Source: Acidobacteriota bacterium (GTDB lineage: Bacteria > Acidobacteriota > Blastocatellia > RBC074). Taken from it: a DNA stretch of 64,000 nucleotides. Both the position numbers and the translations under genes were made by a program. The stretch spans positions 21,696-85,695 of the forward strand of contig JAFDVL010000102.1 of the NCBI GenBank assembly GCA_018268995.1. Direction: 5' to 3'. The stretch's first letter is position 1, and every line of letters starts with the position of its first letter. Shown piece after piece: positions 45,277 to 64,000 of the stretch. The notes beneath the pieces are model-generated. The model ran no database searches. It worked only from the letters and a program-made list of their open reading frames with translations, and was not told the DNA's origin.

Positions 45277-45573
45277 TCACCCGATCATCACCGTCATTTC
45301 TCCCATCACGATATTGCCCCCGTGAACGGTTGTATCTCCGATCCGAGCAGCAGGCATAAAGCCAATCATGACCGTCATTGACCCCATCGCGATTACATCC
45401 GGCGGCCCAACACAGGTTGCCATATCGCCAACGCGGGCAGCGGGCATAAAGCCGATCATGACCGTAGGACAACACGGCGGCAAAATTGGGCCTCCGACGT
45501 GTGGCACGGGTGGCGTGCCGGGGGTGACCATGGGGCAAACATGCATATCACCTAATCTGGCTGCTGGTGGCAT
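45277..45573 (-). CDS. PAAR-domain protein (type VI secretion spike tip), minimal form.
   Basis: Three PAAR motifs: MPPAARLGD, GFMPAARVGD, GFMPAARIGD. Conserved Cys/His is present (HVCP, PPCCP). 98 aa with no C-terminal extension. Confidence 0.9.
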   Translation of the reverse strand: MPPAARLGDMHVCPMVTPGTPPVPHVGGPILPPCCPTVMIGFMPAARVGDMATCVGPPDVIAMGSMTVMIGFMPAARIGDTTVHGGNIVMGEMTVMIG

Positions 45574-45584
45574 AAAAAACTCCT

Positions 45585-46484
45585 TTACAACTCTCGCATC
45601 GCCTTCGTTACTGCCTGTCGTTGTGAGGCATTCAAAGACACTTTTTTCAAAGCTGTGGTGCCAATCTTTTTCAGCAACCGACGTGCTTCACTTGTCAGCG
45701 GTTGACTATCTGGTGTGGGAACATTCGCATCAACGCGATACCAGTCTTGTGGACGATAATCGAAAAGCGATTCGACTAAATGCGGGCGTAATTGTTTTGG
45801 CAGCGTGGTCGTCAAAATTCGATCCAGGCTCGCCAATAACACAGGATTGCGGCGATGTTGCACGATCGCCTCGTGCATCCAGGCAATCTTTTGCTCCGGC
45901 GCGATGGTGGCATCCACCATCCGTTTTTCTAATAATCCAATTGCCGGAGCCGTGCCATTATCAGCCAAAGCATCAATCACAAACTTGATGTGAACGGAAT
46001 CAGGATCGCTGTGGGTTTCCCAAAATTTCAGCACTTCAGCCGTAGGAGGTCGTACGATTGCCAGAGCCTTGATGAGCATCGTGTCGCAGGCATCACAATT
46101 TATCGGCTTCCCAGACCGCACCAAGGCCGCCAGCGTTTCCCGCATTGGAGCCGAGTCATTGCCGCGTATCGTTTGATACAACTGAGCCAGCCGCAGTTTA
46201 TTGACGGGTTTGCGAATATGATCTTCGCGAGGATCAAGCCGATAGATGGCTTCGATTGACGAGAGAAATTCCAGAAGCTTTTTTTGTTCTTGAGAATTCG
46301 TGCTGGCAGCAAGCTTTTGCATCTCCTGCAAAAGTGAATCTGGATTCTGGGAAGAAGTCGTTGGCGTGACTGTCCCAGCTGCGGCTTTTTCGGCCTCTGA
46401 CGCGACAAGAGTTGATCGTCCTTCGCAGGCGAAAAACAAGAGCATTGAAATTATCGGGCCGGCCCAGATCATTCGGCAGTTCAT
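45585..46484 (-). CDS. Hypothetical secreted protein or lipoprotein, paralog A of the downstream gene.
   Basis: Signal peptide MNCRMIWAGPIISMLLFFAC. It shares blocks with 46501-47292 (HSDPDSVHIKFVIDALADNGTAPAIGLLEKRMVD vs HSTPDSIHLHFTIDALCKNGTDPAIALLERKMID; LRLAQLYQTIRGNDSA vs LRIARIFKVLMMNDSA). Confidence 0.6.
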   Translation of the reverse strand: MNCRMIWAGPIISMLLFFACEGRSTLVASEAEKAAAGTVTPTTSSQNPDSLLQEMQKLAASTNSQEQKKLLEFLSSIEAIYRLDPREDHIRKPVNKLRLAQLYQTIRGNDSAPMRETLAALVRSGKPINCDACDTMLIKALAIVRPPTAEVLKFWETHSDPDSVHIKFVIDALADNGTAPAIGLLEKRMVDATIAPEQKIAWMHEAIVQHRRNPVLLASLDRILTTTLPKQLRPHLVESLFDYRPQDWYRVDANVPTPDSQPLTSEARRLLKKIGTTALKKVSLNASQRQAVTKAMREL

Positions 46485-46500
46485 GAGTGGTTCTCAGGAT

Positions 46501-47292
46501 TTACTTAATCAACAAATCCACTTCCGTCAGCGTAATATCAACAGCGACCTTTTCCAGTGGCTTTAATTCCAAATTAGCTTTGGCGTATTCACAAATTGCC
46601 CGCAACTCTTCCAGGGCTTCATTGAAGGCAAGGGCGCGATCCGGTGGAACAGGAACATCGCAGGATTTGTACCATTCTTCCTTGCGATAGGCGCATAAGG
46701 CTTCGACTAATGATCCTTTTAATTCAGGGTCTAAACTGGACTGCAACAGGCGATGACAACCACGCAGCAGTGGGAGATCGTTGCGATGCGACAGGATTGG
46801 GCCGCGCATCCACGCCAGCTTGTAATCCACTTCCTGCTCTGGATCAATCATCTTTCGCTCAAGCAAAGCAATGGCGGGATCAGTGCCGTTTTTGCACAAA
46901 GCGTCAATCGTAAAGTGCAAATGAATCGAATCCGGTGTGCTGTGCGCATCCCAGTATTGAACCGCTACGGACGGAGCGGGCCGAACCGCAGCCAGTGCTT
47001 TGACCAGCAGTTCTTCGCGTGCATCTGAGTCCTTAAATGTGGGCACCTGCGTTAAGGCCACCAGGGTTTGATGGGCTGCCGCAGAATCATTCATCATCAA
47101 GACCTTAAAGATGCGGGCGATGCGCAGTCTTTTGGGAGAGAGAGCAATGTAATCTTCACGCGAATCTATCCGGCTTAAGTAATCCGCAGAACTCAAGGCC
47201 GACAACAGCATAGACTGTTCATTTGGAGTCTTACCGTTGGCCCAGCCGACGGCTTGCCTGACTAATTCCTGCGGAGTTGGTTCATTGGCCAT
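46501..47292 (-). CDS. Hypothetical cytoplasmic protein, paralog B of 45585-46484.
   Basis: No signal peptide (MANEPTPQELVRQAVGW...). It shows paralogy as described for 45585-46484. Confidence 0.6.
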   Translation of the reverse strand: MANEPTPQELVRQAVGWANGKTPNEQSMLLSALSSADYLSRIDSREDYIALSPKRLRIARIFKVLMMNDSAAAHQTLVALTQVPTFKDSDAREELLVKALAAVRPAPSVAVQYWDAHSTPDSIHLHFTIDALCKNGTDPAIALLERKMIDPEQEVDYKLAWMRGPILSHRNDLPLLRGCHRLLQSSLDPELKGSLVEALCAYRKEEWYKSCDVPVPPDRALAFNEALEELRAICEYAKANLELKPLEKVAVDITLTEVDLLIK

Positions 47293-62965: not shown

Positions 62966-62973
62966 AGTTCAGG

Positions 62974-63474
62974 CTAGGCCACATCAGAAAGTGGTAGATA
63001 CCCAACCCCTATCTGTTGGCTATTGCAAAAGAAACTCAGGTTACGGCGGATGAATTTTCCAGTTCGTGTGCCATCCGTTCCCGGAAATGGATGATAGGGT
63101 TCCATGCACTGCACAGTGCTTCCTTTTTGATCGAAGATCACATTCATATGGGTTCCGCCAATGACAGGATAATTGAAAATTACGATCATTGGGGAATCCA
63201 GCCCTTCATAAGATTTAAACTGATCAGGGGATAAATAATTCAGTGAAATGCGGATTTCAGCATCTTCGCACACTTTACGAATTGACGAGATTGACATGCC
63301 GCCATTGGAATCACAAAGATGCATAAACTTGCCAATCATCTCGCCGACTTCAACGCTTTTCCGCTTAAAATTCAAAGACATTGCTTTCGTCCACCAACTG
63401 ATACTTGCTGCCCAGCAGGAGTTCATATCAGGTTGACCATGAGGTTTTAATTTTTTGGTATAGTCGTAGCCCAT
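62974..63474 (-). CDS. 166-aa papain-like Cys/His protein (C39-like / Tae4-like?) located where tssE would be expected.
   Basis: No signal peptide. The N-terminal Cys motif is DMNSCWAASISWW. A downstream His lies in GGTHMNVIFD. Nothing resembles the gp25/TssE signature. It ends 8 nt before tssF. Confidence 0.45.
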   Translation of the reverse strand: MGYDYTKKLKPHGQPDMNSCWAASISWWTKAMSLNFKRKSVEVGEMIGKFMHLCDSNGGMSISSIRKVCEDAEIRISLNYLSPDQFKSYEGLDSPMIVIFNYPVIGGTHMNVIFDQKGSTVQCMEPYHPFPGTDGTRTGKFIRRNLSFFCNSQQIGVGYLPLSDVA

Positions 63475-63512
63475 TCATGTCTCCTTTTTGGTGAAGTAAT
63501 TTAGGATCAATT

Positions 63513-64000
63513 TCAAGCTACCATCAATCCCGACTTAATTAACTGTTGCAGCCTCGCCTCCAATCGCCGATCAATCAGGGATCGAATCAGGCTTTCCTCC
63601 GTGATGTCTTGTTCCTCTTCAGTTTGCAATCCATGCTCAACAGCAAATGCTGTCAGAGCATCAAGTATTTCGGCGCGTGTGCGCGTCCCATCCAATAGTT
63701 GGATCAGGTACACACTGATGTCATCCTCCATCTCAATTGATTGATGAATGATATTAGTGACAACATTTCCCTGCGCGGCCTGCCATCTTGCGAGCGGGAA
63801 AACTTCTGGTTTGTCACTGATCGTGGTTGTGAGTGCGGGTTGGAATGTGTGCAGCTTTACCAGTCCTGAAAGATAAGCAGCAAAAATAATTTCCTGAAAT
63901 ACCTGAACATCTTCGTCATCAATTTCGACTGGTTCGTATTGATTCTCAACCGCGTCCCGCTCAAGGCGTTGGCGAGCAGACTGGACAAGGGCATCAAAAC
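63513..64000 (-). CDS. Hypothetical protein, C-terminal part; ORF open to the window end.
   Basis: The frame reading ...IDDEDVQVFQEIIFAAYLSGLVKLHTFQ...IEMEDDISVYLIQLLDG...KSGLMVA* has no stop back to position 64000. I recognise no family. Confidence 0.4.
   Translation of the reverse strand, partial: FDALVQSARQRLERDAVENQYEPVEIDDEDVQVFQEIIFAAYLSGLVKLHTFQPALTTTISDKPEVFPLARWQAAQGNVVTNIIHQSIEMEDDISVYLIQLLDGTRTRAEILDALTAFAVEHGLQTEEEQDITEESLIRSLIDRRLEARLQQLIKSGLMVA

Follow-up and report, generated by a model that had tools for sequence, protein, structure and literature searches.

The region at positions 45277–64000 of the stretch of DNA analyzed here, a window of 64,000 nucleotides (nt) from a Blastocatellia member of the Acidobacteriota (GenBank assembly GCA_018268995.1, contig JAFDVL010000102.1), is in all likelihood (with a probability of roughly 0.8) the 3' part, corresponding to the downstream two-thirds, of a co-directional type VI secretion system (T6SS) gene cluster of the T6SS-i kind, about 32 kb in length, in which lineage-specific accessory and cargo genes accompany the core. 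The backbone of this cluster reads tssK-tssL-tssM-tagJ-tssA-tssB-tssC-hcp-tssE-tssF-tssG-clpV-vgrG, with PAAR at the far end. The system is of a thoroughly known kind and not a new type, and it is its accessory set and apparent lack of TssJ that are mildly new.

The region was filled by an unbroken run of 16 genes, all on the minus strand, comprising 15 complete open reading frames (ORFs) and one cut by the window end, with intergenic gaps of 0–81 nt. A unidirectional, close-packed string with gaps of 8–80 nt had been described in an earlier note made from the sequence alone; the description held apart from these measurements, and every gene that it had named was recovered, in place and on the minus strand. 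The gene at the window edge (63513–64000), encoding a PKMT-type methyltransferase, was absent from its gene list. Family membership was judged by the curated cutoffs of Pfam and NCBIfam, with T6SS-specific NCBIfam equivalogs used for the core genes (bit scores are given below against the cutoff of the model), while signal peptides, transmembrane (TM) segments and lipoboxes were judged by a simple N-terminal analysis.

PAAR, VgrG, ClpV/TssH, TssG and TssF had been recognized in that note and the region had been taken for a T6SS cluster, an assignment that both Pfam and the NCBIfam equivalogs bore out. The baseplate subunits TssF (61109–62965; Pfam T6SS_TssF, E 6e-231; TIGR03359, 718 bits against 260) and TssG (60028–61062; T6SS_TssG, E 2e-111; TIGR03347, 358 bits against 143) were followed downstream by ClpV/TssH (54028–56685), the sheath-recycling double AAA+ ATPase of the ClpB family, which scored 1318 bits against 885 with TIGR03345 and fell under the cutoff of the ClpB model. 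The VgrG/TssI spike (49948–52278) matched Phage_GPD (E 8e-101), Gp5_trimer_C and Phage_base_V, representing the gp5 OB and trimerization domains, and reached 660 bits against 186 with TIGR03361. Its C-terminus carried a transthyretin-like extension, with a weak CarboxypepD_reg-like match at residues 713–765; such extensions are of the kind used for holding effectors, and a similar role may be supposed here. The last gene of the string encoded the PAAR spike-tip protein (45277–45573; PAAR_motif, E 1e-21), which scored below the NF033420 cutoff.

The sheath, Hcp, TssE, TssA and membrane-complex genes, presumed in the earlier note to lie past position 64000, were found there on near-identical contigs and in a relative. 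A Logan contig (L002) was 100% identical to the window over 8112 nt, and a GenBank contig of a metagenome-assembled genome (L001; GCA_044222815.1, JBGAMQ010000076.1) was 99.8% identical to it over 11027 nt. Beyond the window edge, both contained the rest of the PKMT gene, TssE, an ORF of 111 amino acids (aa), Hcp, TssC, TssB and part of TssA, and L001 reached further, through the full TssA and TagJ/ImpE to the C-terminal 475 aa of TssM at the contig end. In L003, the closest species-level GTDB relative (an uncultured Acidobacteriota, with a TssM 89% identical), TssK (VasE, E 1e-120), TssL and a full TssM of 1126 aa were located immediately upstream, and it is from this relative that we infer a TssK in the window's own genome. 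The NCBIfam equivalog cutoffs were passed by TssH, VgrG, TssF, TssG, TssE, Hcp, TssC, TssB and TssA, with scores on L001/L002 of 204.6 against 97 for TssB (TIGR03358), 739.7 against 271.5 for TssC (TIGR03355) and 62.2 against 58.9 for Hcp (TIGR03344), and with 277.6 bits against 160.9 for TssA. The best PDB matches of TssC were the T6SS sheaths 9n4v (E 2e-199) and 5n8n (E 8e-161), the latter of which we take to be the Pseudomonas aeruginosa sheath. A homology search with the TssM C-terminus returned six fragments and no identical full-length protein. Further, no T6SS-SciN Pfam match, as expected of TssJ, was obtained among the scanned upstream ORFs of the clusters examined, and no lipoprotein-type ORF was present on the cluster strand in L003, L034, L001 or L021. 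Because the neighboring sequence does carry the remaining core genes, whose absence had been named as the outcome that would speak against a T6SS, the T6SS reading stands. Taken together, these data showed that the gene set is a complete or near-complete T6SS-i in canonical order.

The backbone tssK-L-M-tagJ-tssA-B-C-hcp-tssE-F-G-clpV was shared by 31 loci of Blastocatellia and Pyrinomonadaceae. In the Pyrinomonadaceae loci, tssE and tssF were directly adjacent, as were tssG and clpV, the PKMT gene was absent from the T6SS clusters, and three FHA proteins, one with a fused SLT domain, were encoded ahead of tssK. In L021 (431–4807) and ten other loci of this family, the three FHA genes upstream of tssK are consecutive and the middle one is the FHA-SLT fusion, an architecture that appears unusual inside a T6SS cluster. 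In the close clade of the window, the PKMT gene lay between tssE and tssF in all nine loci covering the slot (seven GTDB loci plus L035 and L038; 45–77% identity), the order TssG-CsgG-caspase-ClpV recurred in L034, L035 and L038 with identity down to 66% for the CsgG-like protein and 50% for the caspase, and the Macro gene was found between clpV and vgrG also in L034 and L038. Identities to L034, the closest species compared, were 89% for the CsgG-like protein, 83% for the caspase, 80% for both Macro and the M15-like protein, 77% for PKMT and 74% for the SLT protein, beside 84% for TssG and 75% for TssA; on this comparison the accessory proteins appeared to be conserved like the less conserved core proteins. 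Because the same slots are kept in other species, PKMT, the CsgG-caspase pair and Macro seem to behave like lineage-specific accessory genes rather than variable cargo. The species-variable slots were those after hcp, just before vgrG and everything after vgrG (an RHS-AHH gene in L035; DUF4123, PAAR and acetyltransferase genes in L038), and these appeared to change as cargo slots do. The slot after hcp in L034 (3611–4213) encodes a DUF922 protein with an HExxH motif. The GC content was uniform between core and non-core genes, and a recent horizontal insertion of the latter was rejected, since GC and GC3 were uniform save for slightly lower values in the C39-like gene.

The labels that had been given to the non-core genes stood for the CsgG-like protein, the caspase, the SLT protein, Macro, M15, the metzincin and the two paralogs, and were softer for "LysM", which was a sub-threshold match, and for "C39-like", which had no sequence-family match. 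The edge gene contributes the C-terminal 161 codons of a 533-aa PKMT (Pfam PKMT_2nd, E 1.5e-21) that continues past the window, and its full form was present on L001 (7548–9149) and L002. The full-length protein matched Rickettsia PKMT1 (5dnk, E 5e-74) and PKMT2 (5doo, E 4e-68) over residues 5–525 and contained the methyltransferase, MethyTransf_Reg and PKMT_2nd domains, so that it has the architecture of a PKMT1/2-type enzyme, by prediction. No paper tying the PKMT family to T6SSs was found in the literature. The adjoining gene (62974–63474) encodes a stand-alone protein of 166 aa without a signal peptide, recognized by fold as a C39-like, papain-fold cysteine peptidase; no sequence match was obtained in Pfam (C39 included), NCBIfam or the PDB. 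Its family comprised 62 members with invariant Q14, C20 and H109, and the AlphaFold2 (AF2) model (pLDDT 88.8) had as best folds the C39 domains of PCAT1, ComA and LahT (E 7e-6, TMq 0.6). One homolog carries the name "Peptidase C39-like domain-containing protein" in UniRef. An identity as a Tae amidase was rejected, as the Tae2 fold match was marginal (E 0.035, versus 7e-6 for the C39 domains). The gene adjoined PKMT in four other loci, and in L034 (4713–5237) the slot beside PKMT held a Pfam Peptidase_C70 (AvrRpt2-like) protein instead, so small papain-fold peptidases would seem to recur beside PKMT while being swapped between species. Two homologs of the C39-like gene lie among housekeeping genes with no T6SS nearby (L124:10001–10516 and L125:10001–10492; 57% and 40% identity, respectively), one of them on a contig labeled Pirellulales and the other in Zavarzinia compransoris.

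The Macro gene (53417–53995) encodes a cytoplasmic protein of the MacroD/YmdB type (Pfam Macro, E 2e-43), which scored 225.6 bits against 200 with NF001664, the O-acetyl-ADP-ribose deacetylase model, and its stop codon abuts the start of the next gene, giving the only gap of 0. A function as immunity protein to its neighbor was rejected, because the latter has LAS/M15 motifs and not the features of an ADP-ribosyltransferase, and because L038 keeps Macro while the neighbor there is an unrelated protein. None of the genes for PKMT, the C39-like protein and Macro had an immunity candidate beside it. These three are conserved cytoplasmic proteins that may modify T6SS parts or cargo, or may be small effectors.

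Between tssG and clpV, three consecutive genes encode predicted Sec-exported proteins: a CsgG/FlgT-like protein (58954–59946; CsgG, E 8e-38, then FlgT_C, E 2e-6), a caspase-family (C14) peptidase whose N-terminal domain is a beta-sandwich (57605–58924; Peptidase_C14, E 3e-42; AGHG and DAC motifs) and an SLT-family lytic transglycosylase (56731–57591; SLT, E 4e-9; ES and AYNRG motifs), of which a 74%-identical ortholog occupied the same slot in L034. Within the gene string of the window, signal peptides were predicted for these proteins and for paralog 2 described below, and for no others. T6SS substrates are loaded in the cytoplasm, onto the Hcp/VgrG spike. Because of their Sec signals, the CsgG/FlgT-like protein, the caspase and the SLT protein are therefore taken as periplasmic proteins of the producer and not as cargo. 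The CsgG/FlgT-like protein gave no match in a PDB sequence search, and its AF2 model, of moderate confidence (pLDDT 68), had FlgT (3w1e, E 1e-14) as best full-length fold match and CsgG second (about 1e-6). It contains the domain of the CsgG curli-channel family and has neither the lipobox Cys nor the csgE, csgF, csgA and csgB partners of that family. Because there is no lipobox, no curli gene nearby (flagellar genes were likewise not seen) and FlgT is the best fold match, we assigned it, as far as sequence and model indicate, only to the wider CsgG/FlgT/LpoB-like superfamily.

The more likely cargo genes flank vgrG. Upstream of it, a gene at 52289–53416 encodes an M15/LAS-type (VanY-like) zinc peptidase (M15_4, 26.9 bits against 25) with the motif SEHAIGNAID (H-x6-D) and a C-terminal HH, without a signal peptide or TM segment and with no match in a PDB sequence search. 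An 80%-identical ortholog was present in L034, and in L038 the slot was taken by an unrelated protein. It is a candidate peptidoglycan-cleaving effector; an equivalence to TagX was rejected because it has no membrane anchor, and a secreted effector appears more likely than a TagX-type hydrolase. Downstream of vgrG, the protein encoded at 49188–49925, without a signal peptide, contains a solid PG_binding_1 domain (E 3e-7) and a LysM match that stayed sub-threshold (E 0.018), and is a candidate co-effector or adaptor; in L003, a paralogous gene (41% identity) is found upstream of tssK, ahead of a further large gene of unknown kind. The next gene (47313–49154) encodes a 613-aa metzincin-like zinc protease, also without a signal peptide, in which HEIGHILGLFH at residue 536 is followed 39 residues after the motif by a VMGY Met-turn, as in the HExxHxxGxxH-plus-Met-turn pattern, while matches to M10, M12B, M7 and M43 were all sub-threshold. 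The related loci yielded no ortholog of it, and the protein is a candidate VgrG-linked effector. In the caspase, SLT, M15 and metzincin proteins alike, the catalytic motifs were intact.

Ahead of PAAR lie two paralogous genes, whose products share 37% identity over 253 aa (E 1e-52). Paralog 1 (46501–47292; 263 aa), cytoplasmic with no signal peptide and no family match, is a candidate immunity or chaperone protein, and paralog 2 (45585–46484; 299 aa), which has a lipoprotein-type signal (lipobox LLFFAC), a candidate periplasmic immunity protein; the two are probably immunity genes for the M15-like, LysM-like/PG-binding and metzincin cargo. NCBIfam gave no match for the C39-like, SLT, M15 or paralog proteins. 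The M15-like, LysM-like/PG-binding and metzincin proteins are credible effectors because they lack signals and flank vgrG, and they are likely the true cargo. The claim that the non-core genes are cargo thus held, as a likely assignment, for these proteins, which are compatible with loading in the cytoplasm, and fell for the Sec-exported CsgG/FlgT-like, caspase and SLT proteins. Lineage-specific accessory and effector genes are common within T6SS clusters. The density of such genes, which had been called unusually high, was accordingly not established as such, as well-studied T6SS clusters also hold many accessory and effector genes (review, PMC13584744).

Several points weigh against reading the whole region as one T6SS cluster with dedicated accessory genes. 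TssK, TssL and the N-terminal part of TssM are known from the 89%-identical relative and not from the window's genome, and TssJ could be encoded elsewhere in that genome, the alternative being that it is truly absent, as it could be by analogy with Acinetobacter (PMC10564176). Members of the C39-like family are also found as orphan genes away from T6SS loci, the effector and immunity roles are candidate assignments made from position, motifs and signal peptides, and it is from position only that we infer a role in secretion for the CsgG-caspase module. The CsgG/FlgT-like-caspase pair, with or without the SLT gene, could instead be an autonomous envelope module with no secretion role that was inserted between tssG and clpV in a single Blastocatellia lineage and is merely carried along and co-transcribed, a possibility that deserves serious consideration even though the odds are against it. 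Stand-alone CsgG-caspase pairs (60–66% identity) were indeed present among housekeeping genes in three genomes (L036, L037 and L126), beside genes for 2-oxoglutarate dehydrogenase, acyl-CoA metabolism and NADH dehydrogenase, and in a tree the caspase-linked CsgG copies formed one clade (100% bootstrap), within which those embedded in T6SS clusters did not separate cleanly from the stand-alone ones. In embedded and stand-alone loci alike, the CsgG-like gene was always paired with the caspase gene. Moreover, in 39 of 80 metagenomic loci (L040–L119) the gene directly after a more distant CsgG-like homolog (46–55% identity) encoded a Ser/Thr kinase, most of these CsgG-kinase loci showing no T6SS gene; a literature search gave no description of such a CsgG-like/Ser-Thr-kinase two-gene module, widespread in acidobacteria, and nothing relevant on CsgG, caspase and T6SS together. 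An autonomous module is, however, not readily reconciled with the retention of the same junction down to the identities given above, or with the apparent lack of TssJ in the cluster. Three distant CsgG-kinase pairs (L039, L052 and L064) abut T6SS genes, which by a rough estimate is more than expected for a locus making up about 1% of a genome, and in L063 (5141–9346) and L055 (29–2541) a PKMT-like methyltransferase gene is located immediately upstream of the CsgG/FlgT-like gene, outside any T6SS, echoing the gene content of the present cluster; in L063 the next gene encodes a Ser/Thr kinase, and the L055 contig stops about 240 nt past the CsgG-like gene. These T6SS-abutting pairs and PKMT-CsgG neighborhoods hint at a recurrent link. 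In L064, the CsgG-like gene and kinase come directly after a single 474-aa ORF (687–2111) with both VipA (TssB) and VipB (TssC) Pfam matches, which has the look of a sheath gene that is fused or truncated.

The division of the string into transcripts bears on the same question, because the only minus-strand promoter-like site of the region lies just upstream of the CsgG/FlgT-like-caspase pair. This weak match (9/12) at 60003–59976, in the largest gap (81 nt), may mean more than one transcript, and it is conceivable, though rather unlikely, that the string consists of several transcription units, such as tssF-tssG, CsgG-caspase-SLT and clpV through PAAR, given also the larger gaps upstream of the window (reaching some 167 nt at the tssE–PKMT junction). 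The scan used the sigma-70 consensus, which is of doubtful value for Acidobacteria, and promoter-like sites were rarer than in shuffled sequence (8 versus 18.2); no terminator-like site was found on the minus strand within the intergenic gaps, and neither class was enriched over shuffles. Most gaps were below 50 nt and recognizable ribosome-binding sites preceded most starts. A single transcript, as the earlier note had proposed, would be compatible with the short gaps and the absence of intergenic terminators. The proposal that a single T6SS operon, unusually rich in cargo, secretes the products of all ten interleaved genes as effectors seemed highly improbable to us. It would fit the close packing on one strand, the hydrolases of T6SS-effector kinds among the ten (M15, metzincin, SLT and papain-fold peptidase) and the variation by species after hcp and on both sides of vgrG, but it runs counter to the Sec signal peptides of the CsgG/FlgT-like, caspase and SLT proteins, the conserved positions of PKMT, CsgG-caspase and Macro, the lack of immunity candidates beside the C39-like, PKMT and Macro genes, and the resemblance of the two paralogs to immunity genes. 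Another contractile injection system, whether a phage tail, a tailocin or an extracellular contractile injection system (eCIS), can be given hardly any credence: VgrG, PAAR, the gp25-like TssE and the sheath have counterparts in phage-derived systems, but ClpV/TssH, TssF, TssG, TssA, TssM, TssL, TssK and TagJ were present and passed T6SS-specific models, and no phage tape-measure, tail-fibre or capsid genes were seen. A phage or eCIS origin was thus rejected on account of the T6SS-specific genes.

On the favored reading of a T6SS-i cluster with accessory and cargo genes, contraction of a TssBC sheath on a TssEFGK baseplate docked to TssLM would, as judged from the protein families, drive into a neighboring cell an Hcp tube with VgrG-PAAR at its tip, and ClpV would recycle the sheath. 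The FlgT/CsgG-like protein, the caspase and the SLT protein would act in the periplasm of the producer, most likely opening and organizing the cell wall and outer envelope that surround the membrane complex, with the SLT protein, and possibly the FlgT/CsgG-like-caspase pair, letting the complex through the wall. M15 and the metzincin would be delivered to prey and the paralogs would protect kin, as suggested by position and signals. A bolder proposal, which we consider doubtful, is that a TssJ-less T6SS here derives its outer-envelope part, or the trigger for it, from a ring-forming FlgT/CsgG-like protein together with the caspase and SLT proteins, and that PKMT, with the C39-like protein and Macro, modifies T6SS parts or cargo post-translationally. 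If it were true, the T6SS would gain several accessory (Tag) components not known before, along with a novel mode of regulation or assembly, and the recurring PKMT, CsgG-like and kinase-or-caspase neighborhoods in Acidobacteria would represent one signaling or assembly module.

No further Tss gene was found at positions 1–45000 of the window, which held housekeeping and envelope genes. The 875 nt beyond PAAR contained only a plus-strand ORF convergent on it (44440–45270; 276 aa, GTG start, no Pfam match), which may or may not be a real gene. Past this break, a second co-directional string on the minus strand (34353–44401) encodes a DUF3108-like lipoprotein, a 1511-aa FG-GAP/beta-helix/DUF11 surface protein, a Big_1 protein, an 803-aa exported caspase-TPR (CHAT-like) protein and a CHAP-domain protein. 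In L038, a caspase/CHAT-TPR gene between hcp and tssE resembles the gene for the 803-aa protein. Further along, a minus-strand gene (33292–34260) combines a Schlafen/AlbA_2 domain and an EC042_2821-like restriction-endonuclease-like domain in one protein, an architecture that looks like that of an anti-phage defence gene.

The Acidobacteria are a dominant soil phylum in which T6SSs are essentially unstudied, and the core of this cluster is canonical. If any of the accessory genes is necessary, it would bear on how a TssJ-less system crosses the envelope and on possible T6SS regulation by lysine methylation or ADP-ribose removal; if none is, the cluster is simply a well-preserved example that adds some new effector candidates (M15-like, metzincin and C39-like).

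In comparison with known systems, the gene order of the cluster is the same from tssA onward as that of the P. aeruginosa H1-T6SS, with which it shares the core parts, the order tssA-tssB-tssC-hcp-...-tssE-tssF-tssG-clpV-vgrG, and TagJ/ImpE. Unlike the H1-T6SS, the clade of the window appears to be without TssJ, Fha, PpkA/PppA and TagQRST, and extra genes are placed at four or five junctions, such as PKMT and C39-like at tssE/tssF, CsgG-caspase-SLT at tssG/clpV, and Macro and M15 at clpV/vgrG. The PKMT protein shares full-length homology and the same domain set with Rickettsia PKMT1 and PKMT2, which are outer-membrane-protein lysine methyltransferases, whereas its gene here sits among T6SS core genes. 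The CsgG/FlgT-like protein has its CsgG and FlgT_C domains in common with Vibrio FlgT of the flagellar H-ring (3w1e) and the Escherichia coli curli channel CsgG (4uv3), but it is partnered by a caspase, its distant homologs being joined by a Ser/Thr kinase, and it has no lipobox cysteine and no flagellar or curli neighbors. The papain-like fold and the conserved Gln, Cys and His of the C39-like protein are those of the C39 domains of the bacteriocin ABC exporters PCAT1, ComA and LahT, from which it differs as a cytoplasmic, stand-alone protein with no ABC-transporter fusion and about 12–17% identity; no double-glycine substrate was identified for it.

A 2026 review of accessory factors (PMC13584744) makes no mention of a PKMT-type methyltransferase, a FlgT/CsgG-like-caspase pair, a cluster-encoded SLT protein or Macro. 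The cluster has a likeness to the T6SS of Acinetobacter, which is TssJ-less and has lineage-specific envelope proteins and TsmK (PMC10564176), and whose TagX is a cluster-encoded VanY-type peptidoglycan hydrolase (PMC13584744). The present cluster likewise appears to contain no TssJ and encodes predicted lineage-specific envelope proteins and a putative peptidoglycan-cleaving enzyme; the envelope proteins are, however, unrelated, being FlgT/CsgG-like, caspase and SLT proteins, and TagX is membrane-anchored and faces the periplasm, whereas the M15-like protein here has no such anchor. Both TagX and MltE are peptidoglycan cleavers required for T6SS assembly, the latter a lytic transglycosylase that serves insertion of the membrane complex through the cell wall in the Sci1 T6SS of enteroaggregative E. 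coli (EAEC) (PMC13584744). MltE is a housekeeping enzyme encoded elsewhere, whereas the SLT gene here lies inside the cluster and the SLT domain is fused to FHA in the Pyrinomonadaceae, and by analogy the periplasmic SLT protein of the present cluster could do an MltE-like job.

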